64,000 bases of DNA from an uncultured Candidatus Binatia bacterium. Lineage in GTDB: Bacteria; Desulfobacterota; Binatia; UBA9968; JAJDTQ01. This document shows positions 57,914-64,000 of the stretch, one piece after another. Where the stretch lies: the NCBI GenBank assembly GCA_965213675.1, contig OZ243916.1, positions 1,888,001 to 1,952,000 on the forward strand, in the 5' to 3' direction. Within the stretch, counting starts at the first letter, position 1. Each line of letters starts with the position of its first letter. The notes below the pieces were generated by a model, which made no database searches, had not been told where the DNA came from, and saw only the letters and a list, made by a program, of their open reading frames with translations. The translations under genes and the position numbers were made by a program.

Positions 57914-58684
57914 TCATACCCAGCCGGCATTGCAAGGCGTCCCGCGGGGTTGGACGTAGCACACTTCCACCAGAAACAGTCCACGCGCCGGAGCGGTGGC
58001 GCCGGCCCGTCCGCGGTCGCGGCTCCGGAGCAACGCCGCGACACTGCCCGCCTCCCTCTCGCCGAGCCCCACCTCCACCAGCGTGCCGGCGATATTGCGC
58101 ACCATATGGCGCAGAAAGCCCGTGGCCTCGATACGGTAGACCCAATGATCCTCCCACTGGAACAAGGCGTTGCGGTAGACGCGCCGCACCGGCGTGACCG
58201 CGCCGCAGCCGGCGGCCCGGAACGCTGAGAAGTCGTGCTCCCCTTCCAGCGCGGGCAGCGCCGCGCGCATGGCATCCGTATCCAGGGGCCGTGTCACGTG
58301 CCACGCGTAGCGGTCATGGAACACCGACCGCCAGGGTTGGTTCCACAGCCGGTACTCGTAGACGCGCCGGCGCGCGTCCCGGCGGGCATCGAAGGAGGGG
58401 GCCGCTTTCGCAACCTCCTTCACCGCGATGTCGTCCGGGGTGAGGGCGTCGAGGCTTCGCCGAAGCCGCCACAGGTCCCTGTCGTCGGGGCAGGAGAAGT
58501 TCGCAACCTGGCCCAGCGCGTGCACGCCGGCATCGGTGCGTCCGGAACCATGAACGCGCACCGGCTCCTTGAGCAGCACTGCCAGCGCATCCTCCAGGAC
58601 GCCCTGGATCGTCGGCCCCTCGGGCTGAAGCTGCCACCCCCGGTAACGGGTGCCGTCGTATTGGAGGGTCAGTCGGACGTTCAT
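57914..58684 (-). CDS. truA: tRNA pseudouridine(38-40) synthase
   Basis: YDGTRYRGWQ, GRTDAGVHA, HDFSAF, FLRHMVR, TAPARGL. Confidence 0.96.
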   Translation of the reverse strand: MNVRLTLQYDGTRYRGWQLQPEGPTIQGVLEDALAVLLKEPVRVHGSGRTDAGVHALGQVANFSCPDDRDLWRLRRSLDALTPDDIAVKEVAKAAPSFDARRDARRRVYEYRLWNQPWRSVFHDRYAWHVTRPLDTDAMRAALPALEGEHDFSAFRAAGCGAVTPVRRVYRNALFQWEDHWVYRIEATGFLRHMVRNIAGTLVEVGLGEREAGSVAALLRSRDRGRAGATAPARGLFLVEVCYVQPRGTPCNAGWV

Positions 58685-58710
58685 GGAGCAGACGACCACC
58701 CACCGACCCC

Positions 58711-58761
58711 TGGACTCCCGCCCCCGATCAGGGTCGAGGGCAAGCTTTCGCGGGAATGACG
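58711..58761. repeat. Composite REP palindrome with 24-bp insert
   Basis: Reverse complement of the element at 22796-22843 with 2 differences. Confidence 0.85.
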
Positions 58762-58871
58762 AATTCGGGGGTCCTTGTCATTCCGTATCCGCGGGACGAT
58801 CTTGCACGATCGGTTCCGCGGAAGTGACGTACTTCAAAGGTATCCGCCTCATGCGCATCGAGACGGCGCGG

Positions 58872-59906
58872 TCAGTGATAGTCGCGGATCAGGATCTCGG
58901 CGATCTGCACGGCGTTGAGGGCGGCGCCCTTGCGCAGGTTGTCGGCAACGACCCAGAGATTGATGCCGTTGTCCACGGAGTCGTCTTCGCGAATGCGCCC
59001 CACGCAGGTGGCGTCCTTGCCAGCCGCCTCCGTGGCCAGCGGGTATTCGTTGGCTTGGGGGTCGTCCTGAAGCAGCACCCCGGGCGCCTCGCGGAGGAGC
59101 GCGCGCACGTCGCTGGCGGTCAGTTTCGTGCGGGTCTCGACGTTGATGGATTCGGAGTGGCTGCAGAAGACGGGCACGCGCACCGCGGTGGCGCTGATGC
59201 GGATATCCGGGTCGTCCAGGATCTTGCGCGTCTCCTGGATCATCTTCAACTCTTCCCGGGTATGGCCGCCCGGAACGAACGTATCGATGTGCGGAATGCA
59301 GTTGAACGCGATCTGATGCGGGAACGTCTCACACTCCACGTCGTTGCTGTTGAACAACGCCGCGGTCTGCTTCCCGAGTTCTTCCATGGCCTGGCGTCCG
59401 GCGCCCGACACCGACTGGTAAGTGGACACGACGATGCGGCTGATGCCGGCCGCGTCGTACAGCGGCTTCAGCGCCACCACCATCTGGATGGTGGAGCAGT
59501 TGGGGTTGGCGATGATGCCGCGCTGGACGTGCTCGCCGATCCTTTCGGGGTTGACCTCGGGCACCACCAGCGGGATGTCCTCCTCCATGCGGAAGCAACT
59601 GGTGTTGTCGATGACCACGGCGCCGCCGTCCACCGCCGCCGGCGCGTAGCGCGCGCTCACGGACCCACCGGCGGAAAACAGCGCGATGTCGATGTCCTCG
59701 AAGGAGTCGTCGTCCAGAACCTCCACCGGCACCTGGCGCCCGCGAAACCCGAGGCGTTGACCCGCGGAACGCTCGGATGCCAGCAGGCGCAGCGTCTCCA
59801 CCGGGAACTGCCGCTCCTCGAGGATCTTGCGCAGTTCCTCGCCCACCGCGCCGGTGGCCCCCACCACCGCCACGTTGTAAGCATCCTTGTCCTTGAAAGC
59901 GCCCAT
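58872..59906 (-). CDS. asd: Aspartate-semialdehyde dehydrogenase
   Basis: GATGAVG, ANPNCST, YQSVSGAG, DNLRKGAALNAVQIAE. Confidence 0.97.
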   Translation of the reverse strand: MGAFKDKDAYNVAVVGATGAVGEELRKILEERQFPVETLRLLASERSAGQRLGFRGRQVPVEVLDDDSFEDIDIALFSAGGSVSARYAPAAVDGGAVVIDNTSCFRMEEDIPLVVPEVNPERIGEHVQRGIIANPNCSTIQMVVALKPLYDAAGISRIVVSTYQSVSGAGRQAMEELGKQTAALFNSNDVECETFPHQIAFNCIPHIDTFVPGGHTREELKMIQETRKILDDPDIRISATAVRVPVFCSHSESINVETRTKLTASDVRALLREAPGVLLQDDPQANEYPLATEAAGKDATCVGRIREDDSVDNGINLWVVADNLRKGAALNAVQIAEILIRDYH

Positions 59907-59924
59907 GTCTCTCCCGCGCCCGGT

Positions 59925-61019
59925 TCACACCGTCCGGCTCGCCGCGATCTCCTGGCGCACGCGCGCGCCCATCTCCCGGCAGCCCACCACCGCGGCCTCG
60001 CCCTCGGCGATGTCGAGCGTGCGGCAACCGGTATCCAGCACCCGCTCCACCGCCTGCTCGATGCAGTCGGCGGCGGCGCCCTGATCGAAGGAATGGCGCA
60101 GCATCAGCGCCACGGTCAGGATGGTGGCCAGCGGGTTGGCCTTGTCCTGGCCGGCGATGTCCGGGGCGCTGCCGTGCACCGGCTCGTACATGCCCACCTT
60201 GCCGCCGAGGCTCGCCGACGGCAGCATGCCGATGGAACCGGTGAGCATGGCGGCCTCGTCGCTCAGGATGTCGCCGAACATGTTCGTGGTGACGATGACG
60301 TCGAACTGCCTGGGATCGCGGATGAGCTGCATGGCGCAGTTGTCCACGAGTACGTGCTCAAGCTCCACGTCGCCGTAGCCTTCCTCGTCGCGCACCCGGG
60401 TCACCACCTTGCGCCACAGTTCCGTGGACTCCAGCACGTTGGCCTTGTCCACCGAGGTCACCCGGCAACGGCGCCGGCGGGCCGCGTCGAAGGCCACCCG
60501 CGCGATGCGCTCGATCTCGGGCGTGGTGTAGACCAGGGTGTTGACGCCACGTTCGGTGCCGTCGGGCTCCTGGGTGACGCCCTTGGGCTGGCCGAAATAG
60601 ATGCCGCCGGTCAGTTCCCGCACCACCACGAGGTCCGTGCCTTCCACCACCTCGGGCTTGAGCGTCGAGGCCCGCGCCAGCGGCGCGAACAGCTTCACCG
60701 GCCGCAGGTTGGCGAACAGCCCCAGCTCCCGGCGCAACGCCAGGAGCGCCCGCTCCGGCCGGATGGCGTAGTCGAGGCCGTCCCACTTGGGTCCGCCCAT
60801 GGCGCCCAGCACCACGGCGTCGGCTGCCTGGGCCAAGGCCAGCACCTCGTCGGTGAGAGGCTTGCCGTGGGCGTCGATGGACGCGCCGCCCACCAGACCC
60901 TCCTCCACCTCCACGGTGAAACCGAACAGGTCGCCGGCCTGGCGCAGCACGGCCATGGCCTCGGCGACCACTTCCGGACCGATGCCGTCGCCCGGAAGCA
61001 CCGTTACCTTGTGACTCAT
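59925..61019 (-). CDS. leuB: 3-isopropylmalate dehydrogenase
   Basis: [39 protein letters not shown]. Confidence 0.97.
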
Positions 61020-62572
61020 GGACCCCCCTTGACCTTGGCCTGGCGATGCCGCTTGCGGTATTCGAGCCGGTTCAGCGCATTCACGTACGCCAGCGCGCTC
61101 GCCATGATGATATCCGTGTGGGAACCTTTGCCGGAGATGTGGATGTCCTTCTCCTGGAGCATGCACGACACCTCGCCCTGGGCGTCCGTGCCGCCGGTGA
61201 CGCTGGCCACCGCGTAGCGCTGCAGCTGGGCGCGGCTCCCGGAGAGCTTGGCGATGGCTTTATAGCACGCATCCACCACCCCGTCACCCGTGTCGTGGGC
61301 CATCTTCTCCTCGCCGTCCACGCGCATGCGCACGGTGGCCGACGGCACCGCGGAAGAGCTGGACGCGATGTTCAGGTACATGAGCTCGTAGCGGTCCGGC
61401 TGGCTGGGAATGCGCAGCACCTCGTCCGCCACCAGCGCCTCGATATCCTCGTCGAAGACCTGCTTCTTCTTGTCCGCCAACGCCTTGAAGCGCTCGAAGG
61501 CACGGTTCACATCGTCCTTGTCGAGGGAGAACCCGAGCTGCTGCAGCCTTTCGCCGAAGGCGTGGCGCCCGGAATGCTTGCCCATCACCAGCCGGTTGCC
61601 GGTAATGCCCACGGTCTCGGGCTTCATGATCTCGTAGGTGAGCTTCTGCTTGAGCACGCCGTCCTGATGGATGCCGGCCTCGTGGGCAAAGGCGTTGTCC
61701 CCCACGATGGGCTTGTTGAGCGGCACCGTGATGCCGGTGACCTGGGAGAGCAGGCGCGAGGTCGGGTAGATCTGCTCCGTTTGGATGCGCGTGTCCAGGC
61801 CGAACACCGGCTGACGCGTCTTGAGCGCCATCACCACCTCTTCCAGCGATGTGTTGCCGGCGCGCTCGCCGATGCCGTTCACCGTGCATTCCACCTGCCG
61901 CGCGCCGTTGGCCACCGCGGCCAGGGAATTGGCCACGGCCAGGCCCAGGTCGTTGTGGCAGTGGGCGCTCCAGGTGACCGTTTCCGCGCCTTCGGTGTGC
62001 TCGATGAGGTAGCGCACCAGCTCGCCGAATTCCGACGGGATCGCGTAACCTGTGGTGTCGGGGATGTTGAGGGTCTTCGCTCCCGCGCGAATGGCCTCGC
62101 CGAAGACCTCCACCAGGAACTCCCGGTCGCTGCGCGAGGCATCCTCGGCCGAGAACTCGACGTAATCGAGGTAGCGGCGGGCGTGGGCCACCGCCGTGCC
62201 CACGGACTCCATCACCTCGTCGCGGGACATGCGCAGCTTGTGCTTCATGTGGATGTCCGAGGTGGCGATGAAGGTATGGAGGCCGGGCCTGTGCGCCCCG
62301 TCCACCGCCTTGGCCGCCTTGCGAATGTCGCCGAGCTGCGCCCGCGCCAGACTCAGCACGATGGGCCGCTCCACCGCCTTGCACACCTGTACCACCGACT
62401 CGAAGTCCCCGGGCGACGACGCCGCGAATCCCGCCTCGATGACGTCGACTCCCAGCTTGTCGAGTTGACGCGCGATGAGGACCTTCTCCTCGATGTTCAT
62501 GCTCGCCCCGGGAGACTGCTCGCCGTCCCTCAACGTGGTATCGAAAATGTTTACAATGTTGCTGGCGCCCAT
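61016..62572 (-). CDS. leuA: 2-isopropylmalate synthase
   Basis: [33 protein letters not shown]; C-terminal regulatory domain. Confidence 0.97.
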
Positions 62573-62588
62573 GGTCTTCCTCCTCAAC

Positions 62589-62618
62589 AAAAAAAACTCC
62601 CGCGAAGGGCGGGAGTTT
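62589..62618 (-). terminator. Intrinsic terminator/attenuator hairpin upstream of leuA
   Basis: Minus strand aaactcccg-cccttcg-cgggag-tttttttt directly before the leuA RBS. Confidence 0.88.
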
Positions 62619-62647
62619 CGGTGGTGCAAGCTGGGATTTGCTCAGGC

Positions 62648-63496
62648 TCAGGCTTGTACGGGTGCCTGCGCCTCCCTCCGTCGCGTCCGCACGGCGAGTA
62701 ACCATAGTAACGGGCCCGATAAGGTGTACAGCAACAACGCTGAGAAGAGCATGATCTGCCACATCGCAATGGTGAGTATAACGATTGCCATGGCGGAAAG
62801 CAATAACCAAATGGTGCTGCGCTTCTTGAAGTGGTGCTGCTTCAGACTCAGGTAGCGGAAGTTGCTGACCATCAGGGCCGCGAGCAAGCAAGTGACCCCG
62901 GTGAAGACCACGGGCCGGCTGGCCAGGCCGTCGAGCCCCAGCATCAGGAAGATGAACAGGGTGGCGGCGATCATGGCGGCCGCCGCCGGAATCGGCAGGC
63001 CCGTGAAGTAGCTCTTCTCCGCGGTCAGGGTCTGCACGTTGAAGCGCGCCAGCCGCAACGCCCCGCACACGGCGAAAAGTGCCGGTCCCAAGCCGCCCCA
63101 GGGACCCCAGGGCTCCAGGGCGAACACATACACCAGCACGGCGGGAGCCACGCCGAAGGAAACCACGTCCGCCAGCGAATCGAACTCGACGCCGAACTGG
63201 CTGGTGGTGTGGGTGAGGCGCGCCACCGCGCCATCGATCCCGTCCAGCAAATGCGCCGCCAGGATCCACAAGGCCGCCTGAGGGTACTCCCCCCGGATAG
63301 CGAAAAAGATGGCAAACACGCCGCAGACGAGGTTGCCCGCGGTGATCAGGCTTGGCAACAGGAACATCCCCTGCCGCAGCCGGGTGGACGGCCCGCGGCG
63401 TTTCAGACGGCGGCGGCGCACTTTTCCGCGTGGGATCAGCCGAACCCTCCGCGGCGGCGTTTCGGCATTCTCGGCGGTGTATTCGGAACTCTTCAT
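62648..63496 (-). CDS. pssA: CDP-diacylglycerol--serine O-phosphatidyltransferase
   Basis: LPSLIT, DGIDGAVAR...FGVEFDSLADVVSFGVAP, LRLARFN, FTGLPIP. Confidence 0.95.
   Translation of the reverse strand: MKSSEYTAENAETPPRRVRLIPRGKVRRRRLKRRGPSTRLRQGMFLLPSLITAGNLVCGVFAIFFAIRGEYPQAALWILAAHLLDGIDGAVARLTHTTSQFGVEFDSLADVVSFGVAPAVLVYVFALEPWGPWGGLGPALFAVCGALRLARFNVQTLTAEKSYFTGLPIPAAAAMIAATLFIFLMLGLDGLASRPVVFTGVTCLLAALMVSNFRYLSLKQHHFKKRSTIWLLLSAMAIVILTIAMWQIMLFSALLLYTLSGPLLWLLAVRTRRREAQAPVQA
62775..62803 (-). promoter_or_regulatory. Putative sigma70 promoter inside pssA, driving the leu leader
   Basis: TTGCTT(62803-62798)-N17-TATACT(62780-62775). Confidence 0.65.
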
Positions 63497-63500
63497 ACGG

Positions 63501-63998
63501 TCAGAGCCGCGCCACGATGGTCTCGCCCCCGCGAACGCGCTCGCCCGGCCGCACCGCCACCGCGGCGTCCGCGGGCAGGTGCAGATCCACGCGTGAGCCG
63601 AACATGATCATGCCAAAACGCTCGCCCCGCTTCAACGTATCGCCGCGCCCCACGTCGCAAACGATGCGGCGCGCGAGAAAGCCGGCGATCTGCACCACAC
63701 GGACGGTCCTGCCCGAGGCGTCCGTGAGCGCCACCGCGTTGCGCTCGTTCTCCTCCGATGCCTTGCCTTTGTAGGCGGCCAGGAAACGGCCTGCCTGGTG
63801 GCGGACGTCCGCTACCCGCGCGTCCAGGGGCGCGCGATTGATGTGCACGTCCAGAGGTGAAAGGAAGATGCTGACCCTGGGGCCGCCGGGATGCGTGCCG
63901 TCGTCCTCGACTTCCACCACCTTGCCATCGGCGGGAGATACCACGAGGCCATCGCCGGCGGGGGTCACCCGCGCGGGGTCGCGAAAGAACCCCGCCAG
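63501..63998 (-). CDS. psd: Phosphatidylserine decarboxylase proenzyme (5' end outside window)
   Basis: FFRDP, SPADG, SIFLSPLDVHINRAP, QIAG...RRI, FGSRVD cleavage motif. Confidence 0.93.
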   Translation of the reverse strand: MAGFFRDPARVTPAGDGLVVSPADGKVVEVEDDGTHPGGPRVSIFLSPLDVHINRAPLDARVADVRHQAGRFLAAYKGKASEENERNAVALTDASGRTVRVVQIAGFLARRIVCDVGRGDTLKRGERFGMIMFGSRVDLHLPADAAVAVRPGERVRGGETIVARL

Positions 63999-64000
63999 CG

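Follow-up and report, generated by a model that had tools for sequence, protein, structure and literature searches.

A probable ribosome-mediated leucine attenuator of leuA with the 3' end of pssA as its leader in uncultured Candidatus Binatia

In a 64,000-nucleotide (nt) stretch of the genome of an uncultured Candidatus Binatia bacterium (hereafter the window; coordinates are positions in it), the gene of CDP-diacylglycerol--serine O-phosphatidyltransferase, pssA, is followed by leuA, and all elements of the pssA-leuA junction discussed here are on the minus strand. We propose that the 3' end of pssA acts as the leader of a ribosome-mediated leucine attenuator of leuA-leuB-asd, a reading to which comparative sequence analysis lends a probability of about 0.8. 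Leader-peptide attenuation is a textbook mechanism, and, to our knowledge, its sensor has always been described as a dedicated mini-ORF (open reading frame). Here, the sensor would be the last transmembrane (TM) helix of PssA, as was suggested in an initial annotation of the window. The comparative evidence supports this suggestion on five counts: the arrangement recurs in 59/59 related junctions, the unusual codon choice is confined to Leu, rare Arg codons downstream of it are frozen, the antiterminator pairing and a hairpin across the stop codon covary, and sister families have Leu leaders of the ordinary kind at the same place.

The 38-codon pssA tail that begins at the first in-frame ATG (62764; a second follows at 62752) reads MWQIMLFSALLLYTLSGPLLWLLAVRTRRREAQAPVQA and contains 9 Leu, as initially annotated. 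The putative sensor codons (62737-62696, pssA codons 254-267) belong to the last TM helix, ALLLYTLSGPLLWLL, and include TTG TTG CTG at 62737-62729, TTA at 62722-62720, and the cluster TTA CTA TGG TTA CTC at 62710-62696. Their rarity, at first judged by eye, is borne out by genome-wide counts: TTA makes up 0.3% and CTA 1.1% of Leu codons (together 1.4%; 113,134 Leu codons in 2662 ORFs of high third-position GC content), and the two account for 1771 of 1,254,546 codons. Four TTA/CTA codons within any 16-codon window are seen in 2/3322 ORFs, one of which is pssA with its tail, so that their density is far beyond chance. The genome has one tRNA-Leu gene each with anticodons UAA and UAG. There is no Leu-rich ORF in the other two frames of the pssA tail region. 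The only other ORF with four TTA/CTA per 16 codons (G000:C1:2601189-2603732, plus strand, outside the window; ALPAAHGVRAVLLLHL) may be a wrong-frame one. A genome scan for other Leu-leader candidates returned only pssA and the C-termini of other ORFs; one of the hits, at C1:3845820, was rejected as the end of a longer ORF.

We found pssA in 59 of 61 related genomes searched; of the resulting 59 junctions, 28 belong to the same genus, and two further families contribute 5 and 26. In all 59 junctions of this order pssA is followed by a terminator of the same kind and then by leuA. The pssA-leuA spacer is 70-78 nt long in the genus and 76-119 nt elsewhere in the order, with the exception of locus L053 (G043:C5:2063-2963). 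There, an insertion of about 280 nt separates the conserved terminator from the ribosome-binding site of leuA and extends the spacer to 370 nt, and this leuA may have acquired a different promoter.

Between 3 and 5 TTA/CTA codons are present in the tail zone of every one of the 28 genus members, but their positions shift from one genome to another: the codon at position 259 is CTA in 20 genomes and TTA in 8, and at 263 there are 11 CTG, 10 TTA and 4 CTA. Synonymous diversity in the Leu-codon zone is normal (0.29-0.33; gene mean, 0.30). Shifting rare codons and normal diversity together match what selection for rarity, rather than for a fixed sequence, would predict. Over codons 250-267 of the 28 genomes, 111/235 Leu codons end in A, as opposed to 7/253 non-Leu codons, and the non-Leu codons that adjoin the rare Leu codons stay GC-rich; it is thus the Leu codons, and not the region as a whole, that are AT-rich. 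In a set of 30 loci, the last 45 pssA codons have TTA 81 and CTA 51 times among 320 Leu codons, compared with 9 and 22 times among the 2047 Leu codons in the remainder of those loci. The same holds for the other two families, whose GC content is lower: in 29 of their loci, TTA accounts for 56/178 Leu codons in the tail zone and for 10/536 elsewhere.

The intrinsic terminator (62619-62589, regions 3 and 4 of the putative attenuator) consists of an 11-pair stem, AAACTCCCGC/GCGGGAGTTT, with the loop CCTTC and a T8 run at 62596-62589; its predicted energy is -17.7 kcal/mol. It was also detected by a terminator scan, and its motif has a single occurrence in the genome. The T-run ends 3 nt ahead of the Shine-Dalgarno (SD) sequence of leuA, GAGGAGG at 62585-62579, and the leuA ATG is at 62572. 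No promoter therefore fits between the two, and transcription of leuA must read through the terminator. The pairing is maintained in 96.5% of cells in the alignment of 59 sequences and in 100% in that of the 31 sequences from the other two families; a pair flanking the stem covaries (AU 14, GU 9, GC 8).

The codons for Arg-Arg-Arg-Glu in the basic tail of PssA contain region 2, or strand A (GCGACGGAGGGAG, 62684-62672), the 5' strand of the putative antiterminator. Strand A is a near-copy of the terminator 3' arm and is complementary to the 5' arm. In the genus its codons are CGA CGG AGG GAR, with CGA kept in 26/28 genomes and CGG and AGG in 28/28, even though CGA and AGG are used at fractions of only 0.05 and 0.06 (CGG, 0.32; the usage here and below is that of genome G000, taken as a proxy for its relatives). 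Synonymous diversity over codons 265-279 falls to 0.16, compared with the pssA mean of 0.30.

The nine proposed pairs between strand A and the terminator 5' arm are formed in 85.5% of cells in the 59-sequence alignment (A1), compared with 35-54% when the partner is slid, and in 90.7% when only the other two families (31 sequences) are counted. Covariation is found at alignment pairs 69-154 and 68-155. The former is GC in 32 sequences, AU in 17 and GU in 10, and it is never unpaired. There are 20 cells with changes on both sides, a number equalled by none of 500 shuffles, so that the covariation anticipated between antiterminator and terminator arm is indeed observed. Examples of compensating strands are CTCCCGT with ACGGGAG, CTCCCGC with GCGGGAG (L054, L072) and ...GTTGG with CAACGGG (L051, L061); outside the genus, all 5 sequences with C at column 154 have G at column 69. 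In two loci of another order (L121, L122), CTCCCGCTGG pairs with CCAGCGGG. In the window's genome the pairing of strand A with the 5' arm and loop adds -6.9 kcal/mol and is predicted once the upstream RNA is masked. The initial annotation placed these strands correctly and gave this register, with both the 5' arm and the loop as partners. It fits only the subclade of L001-L006, whose terminator has the loop CCCTYCG and whose strand A reaches this loop and the arm ends; in the other genomes strand A pairs with the 5' arm alone.

Between strand A and the terminator, a hairpin spans the pssA stop codon (TGA, 62650-62648), at the place where it was originally noted. Its arms, AGGCGCAGGC at 62673-62664 and GCCTGAGCCT at 62653-62644, are predicted to pair with -15.5 kcal/mol (hairpin 62673-62644). 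CAGGC/GCCUG is kept throughout the genus, and in the other two families 9 of 10 pairs of the stop-spanning helix are retained with changes on both sides.

The terminator and antiterminator pairings had thus been recognized at the outset; what had gone unnoticed is a putative anti-antiterminator strand overlapping the Leu codons. This region 1 (62702-62689) consists of the last Leu codons and their neighbors, TTA CTC GCC GTG C, and would pair with region 2. The local 1:2 hairpin, which joins the LLAV codons with strand A, has a predicted energy of -12.2 kcal/mol and is part of the consensus that RNAalifold gives for the 28 sequences of the genus, where alignment pair 73-103 is CG in 20, UA in 5 and UG in 3. 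In RNAalifold runs on full-length alignments, too, Leu-codon segments pair with strand A: CUG CUC GCC GUG C with GCGACGGAGGGAAG in the genus, and CUC CUG/UUG UAU ACU with GGAGACGGGAG in the other families. Removal of the terminator 3' arm shifts the consensus of the other families to the A:5'-arm helix plus the stop hairpin; in the genus, the consensus pairs an upstream CGGCG with the 5' arm instead. In the other families, region 1 with strand A is paired in 85.7% of cells, and an alternative helix, between the PLL codons and the 5' strand of the stop hairpin, in 76.7%. An anti-antiterminator overlapping the Leu codons is thus likely, with an exact form that varies between the candidates.

The 180-nt leader as a whole folds with -72.4 kcal/mol (z = -3.08). 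A long-range helix between the nested start region (see below) and an intergenic motif, present in the minimum-energy fold, was dropped, as no more than 5 of its pairs, all weak, are retained in the genus consensus. The motif itself, CAGCTTGCA at 62633-62625, is judged by eye to be conserved in most of the 28 sequences from the genus, is usually followed by TGATCC or TCACCG, and has only a 4-bp local hairpin predicted for it; it is not conserved in the other families.

A wider sample of the class contained pssA in 115 of 121 genomes, from which 38 further junctions were examined together with 4 earlier ones. Eight of them have no leuA in the stretch (four in family f81, two in f86, one in f82, and one cut by a contig end). 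Of the 34 that do, 29, from 12 families, have a separate Leu-rich leader ORF and a terminator within a spacer of 140-330 nt (leaders are, for example, MSILSLGLLLGLLGLLLALLLTTPPGESERSA and MSRAFLLLDAALLGELLLTSPSVADVVV; the case of L137 is weak). Families f83 and f80 account for the other 5, which are of the embedded type. The sister families have a TTGACA-type promoter at or inside the end of pssA, and the leader ATG is 6-10 nt after the -10 hexamer in 16 of the 22 loci with a called promoter, at 18-37 nt in the other 6, and not evaluable in 7 loci. This spacing suggests that leaderless leader peptides may be the rule in the class. Most of all, these putative separate leaders are the strongest independent support for the attenuator reading of the embedded junctions. 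Several other features of the sister leaders deserve mention: those of L077-L080 and L125-L153 share the ending LLL-[S/T/R]-x-P-[P/S], most of them follow a near-perfect TTGACA -35 hexamer, and in L079, L080, L127 and L133 the -35 hexamer falls inside the last pssA codons.

The sample from outside the class comprised 40 junctions, of which 28 could be evaluated; leuA is downstream of pssA in 14, and 8 of these have no attenuator, with genes that overlap or are separated by 14 nt or less. ATGA-type junctions, in which pssA and leuA overlap or lie within 5 nt of each other, occur in L081, L086, L091, L100 and L107, from other classes of the phylum, and imply translational coupling without an attenuator. 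A hairpin with a T-run, without Leu enrichment in the tail, is found between the two genes in L083, L085 and L087, also from other classes.

The same comparison bears on the origin of the pssA tail. A PssA ending made of Y-x-[LIV]-S-G-P, hydrophobic residues and RRRR is general across the phylum, and the order has LLYTLSGPLLWLL where others have, e.g., LIYAISGPIMAII, with hydrophobic residues replaced by Leu. The tail is therefore a genuine PssA C-terminus re-coded toward Leu, and not a fused leader. Fusion of an old leader ORF to pssA was considered and rejected on the same grounds, since the YxLSGP-hydrophobic-RRRR ending is that of an ordinary PssA.

From the elements observed, the codon rarity, the conservation and the covariation we infer an order of folding, a ribosome stall and a dependence on leucine that would operate as follows. 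RNA polymerase would arrive on the ilvBNC-psd-pssA transcript and, in the window's genus, probably also after initiation at a promoter inside pssA. When Leu-tRNA is scarce, especially the UUA/CUA isoacceptors, a ribosome translating the pssA tail would stall at the rare Leu codons (62710-62696) and mask region 1, thereby freeing region 2. Region 2 would then pair with the terminator 5' arm and loop as they emerge, aided by the stop-spanning hairpin; the terminator would be blocked, and transcription would go on into leuA-leuB-asd. With plentiful Leu, the ribosome would reach the stop codon and melt the stop hairpin, region 1 would re-pair with region 2 behind it, and the terminator would form, stopping transcription 17 nt ahead of the leuA start codon. 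The junction has the usual attributes of an attenuator, namely a terminator adjoining the regulated gene, a Leu-enriched ORF upstream, and an antiterminator pairing that excludes the terminator; translation of the sensing codons is assumed, since they belong to pssA. What it lacks is a dedicated short leader ORF with no other function.

Several observations weigh against this mechanism. Two embedded-type junctions of family f83 (L123, L124), which have the same CTCCCGCTGG...CGCGGGAG terminator, have no clear strand A and no more than 3 Leu codons in the sensor zone; the switch there may be decaying or differently wired. The terminator stem proper is invariant, with covariation limited to the flanking pair. 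Pairing between strand A and the 5' arm is weak in the genus: an A/G mismatch divides it into stretches of 3 and 4-5 bp, and the duplex energy is -12.8 to -16 kcal/mol. An alternative strand, GCCGUGCGGAAG, scores about the same as strand A. Antiterminator covariation is largely between clades and thus represents few independent events. Region 1 is ambiguous in the other families, where two mutually exclusive candidates stand above the controls and another RNAalifold run chose a third, shorter one. A cmscan search of 61500-64000 against Rfam (E up to 10) matched no family, Leu_leader, T-box and riboswitches included; weak terminator-driven matches were seen to Hrs13 (20.3 bits; gathering score, 52) and rnk_pseudo (18.2; gathering score, 55). 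A search for sequencing runs that contain the locus listed four of DNA type from a single study, one unrelated candidate and none of RNA.

The most serious difficulty comes from modeling. The individual hairpins and pairings are predicted, but the switch was not reproduced by a simple equilibrium model in which the footprint of a ribosome is masked. With the ribosome on the Leu cluster in the window's genome, the pairing probability of the terminator 5' core is only 0.04-0.15, and this core is little paired wherever the ribosome is placed; in L001 and L026 it is low or flat along the ribosome positions, and in L060, L029 and L070, from other families, a ribosome at the stop codon leaves the antiterminator intact. 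The proposed switch therefore needs kinetic, order-of-folding assumptions, as other attenuators do, and judging by these models this dependence is the weakest point of the attenuator scheme.

Three rival readings are all unlikely. One is a coupling attenuator of the rph-pyrE type, in which read-through would report general translation or nucleotide status and not leucine. Here, as in rph-pyrE (PMC2784333), a full-length upstream gene ends shortly before the attenuator, and the few Leu codons in embedded-type genomes such as L123 and L124 would be no obstacle to such a device. The distance between the pssA stop and the terminator 5' arm (62618), however, is 29 nt, and similar or larger in relatives, which is too far for occlusion. 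Moreover, the genes under control would be leuA and leuB, a codon bias specific to Leu is conserved, and sister lineages have Leu-rich leaders.

Similarly little credence can be given to a plain terminator of the ilvBNC-psd-pssA operon, with leuA expressed by constitutive leakage or from an internal promoter and the rare Leu codons serving PssA itself, e.g., by slowing translation during membrane insertion of the TM helix. The rare codons do sit in a TM helix, and terminator-like hairpins without Leu enrichment do separate pssA from leuA in other classes (L083, L085, L087). Nevertheless, the terminator abuts the leuA SD, leaving no room for a promoter after it; the rare-codon bias is restricted to Leu (111/235 vs 7/253 A-ending); the frozen rare Arg codons, which mimic the terminator 3' arm and covary with the 5' arm, would be left without an explanation; and sister families have a canonical Leu leader at the same spot. 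Finally, an antiterminator made of strand A, the stop hairpin and the CAGCTTGCA motif that binds a protein or a ligand, with translation uninvolved, could give a role to the unexplained conserved intergenic motif and would accommodate the lack of switching in the equilibrium model, but it is the least credible of the three, as no Rfam family was matched, the elements conserved between families are those in the coding region and not the intergenic sequence, and the Leu-codon bias would be left unexplained.

Two routes by which ribosomes might read the sensor codons of the putative attenuator had been suggested: translation of full-length pssA and a nested, near-leaderless ORF. The first is available in all lineages. 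The second would depend on a promoter-like element within pssA, TTGCTT (62803-62798), a 17-nt spacer and TATACT (62780-62775), whose position and spacing are as initially described, and on the in-frame ATG of Met245 (62764-62762), 10 nt after the -10 hexamer, as the candidate start of the 38-codon ORF. Both hexamers are invariant in 28/28 genus members despite the rare codons that they entail (CTT 0.07, ATA 0.04, and, in 26/28, GCA 0.05), and synonymous diversity over codons 225-247 is 0.17-0.19, again below the pssA mean, which agrees with the expectation that a promoter would be conserved at synonymous sites. The ATG at 62764 is likewise invariant in 28/28. The codon of the second ATG (62752-62750) is GTG in 25 genus members, ATG in 2 and GTC in 1. 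A consensus promoter scan of 58000-64000 returned 0 sites and did not call the element, because it matches only 8/12 consensus positions, and 3/6 in the -35; the argument for an internal promoter is therefore one of conservation. In some other genera the element is degenerate (e.g., L056, L058, L076), and the internal ATG is absent in L061, L068, L069 and in f83, so that translation of full-length pssA is the only order-wide route. In the window's genus, where synonymous-site conservation and the geometry of the sister leaders speak for it, the nested route is plausible, with somewhat less than an even chance of being used.

A more elaborate reading for the genus, which we advance tentatively and consider somewhat less secure than the nested start, would make the last ~55 pssA codons at once a TM helix with a basic tail, a sigma70-type promoter, a leaderless nested ORF, a Leu sensor and three RNA strands. 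The leuA-leuB-asd genes would have two leucine-gated inputs, ilvBNC-psd-pssA read-through, sensed by ribosomes finishing PssA, and their own leaderless transcript; conceivably, the nested ORF would also release a free 38-residue copy of the helix. In evolutionary terms, pssA might have captured an ancestral leader role, replacing a free-standing leaderless Leu leader that is still present in 12 sister families. If this is true, leucine starvation would throttle the completion of PssA, tying branched-chain amino-acid supply to phospholipid synthesis.

The gene context is as follows. The order on the minus strand is ilvBNC-psd-pssA-[terminator]-leuA-leuB-asd. At its edge the window contains psd (63998..63501, cut by the window end), then pssA (63496..62648, 282 codons, with the regulatory elements in the last ~55), a 75-nt spacer, leuA (62572..61016; 62585..61016 with its SD), leuB, asd and truA. 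In the genome, ilvB, ilvN and ilvC are directly upstream of psd, so that pssA is located within a branched-chain amino-acid cluster. The identities of pssA, leuA, leuB, asd and psd are supported by NCBIfam scores above or near curated cut-offs: PssA has 138.9 bits with TIGR00473 (cut-off 107), and the leuA product, 2-isopropylmalate synthase, which would be the first one regulated, has 765 bits. Archaetidylserine-synthase models align with PssA as far as residues 259-263. The source genome has 4.53 Mb and 65.3% GC; the lineage is uncultured, and its relatives are metagenome-assembled genomes titled 'Candidatus Binatia bacterium'. An attenuator was also sought in front of ilvB, and a small ORF was found there instead (74 codons, MEEREEQMIASVLDKDPELRKYYEEHL..., within G000:C1:1955585-1956010, minus strand, outside the window), preceded by a promoter-like site TTGACA-N17-TAGTTT. 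This ORF may be DUF465-like.

In the attenuator scheme, the C-terminus of an essential membrane enzyme seems to have been re-coded for sensing: hydrophobic residues have become Leu, Leu codons have become rare, and Arg codons copy a terminator arm. This would be an extreme overlap of protein, RNA-structure and probably promoter codes. The class, in which both ordinary and embedded leaders occur, offers a natural series for the study of gain, loss or absorption of a regulatory ORF, and comparable gene-embedded leaders may hide in other genomes. The literature searched yielded no account of an amino-acid leader embedded in pssA or in another gene, nor of the separate Leu-rich leaders of the sister families; most subscription journals were outside the scope of that search, so that an earlier description may exist.

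Among known systems, the closest in logic is the enteric leuL attenuator, which likewise has clustered rare Leu codons with proposed stalling, a terminator just upstream of leuA, and a scheme of alternative pairings, 2:3, 3:4 and, if the candidate region 1 is correct, 1:2; rare Leu codons are described as a paradigm feature of the enteric leu leader (PMC1183508). The pssA-leuA junction differs in that the putative sensor encodes the final TM helix of an enzyme of 282 residues, whose Arg-rich tail contains the antiterminator strand. In addition, the Leu codons are interspersed (LLLYTLSGPLLWLL), whereas leuL has a run of four, and there is an extra hairpin across the stop codon and no Rfam match at E up to 10. 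Like the sensor of the junction, the separate leaders of the sister families are placed ahead of leuA at the pssA-leuA boundary and are Leu-rich ORFs; they have their terminator near leuA and their promoter within or at the end of pssA, with a -10 to ATG distance of 6-10 nt (16/22) comparable to that of 62775/62764. They differ in having their own ORF of 24-40 codons within a 140-330-nt spacer, a strong TTGACA -35 and different terminator sequences; here, the spacer measures 70-119 nt, and the leader is an in-frame part of pssA itself.

Two other systems each share one unusual property with the pssA leader. The pyrE attenuator senses uridine triphosphate through the speed of RNA polymerase and its coupling to ribosomes, and is not known to use regulatory codons. 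In rph-pyrE a full-length functional upstream gene replaces the leader peptide, and the end of translation relative to the attenuator hairpin sets expression (PMC2784333). The E. coli rph-pyrE pair thus resembles the present case in having a full-length gene in the leader-peptide role, and differs in that the proposed signal here is charged Leu-tRNA at rare codons, with a separate antiterminator strand. In Deinococcus deserti, attenuator leader peptides are translated from a 5'-terminal AUG (PMC4007540), the geometry of the candidate nested start at 62764 and of the sister leaders; the D. deserti leaders are free-standing small ORFs, whereas the one proposed here is nested in frame within another gene.

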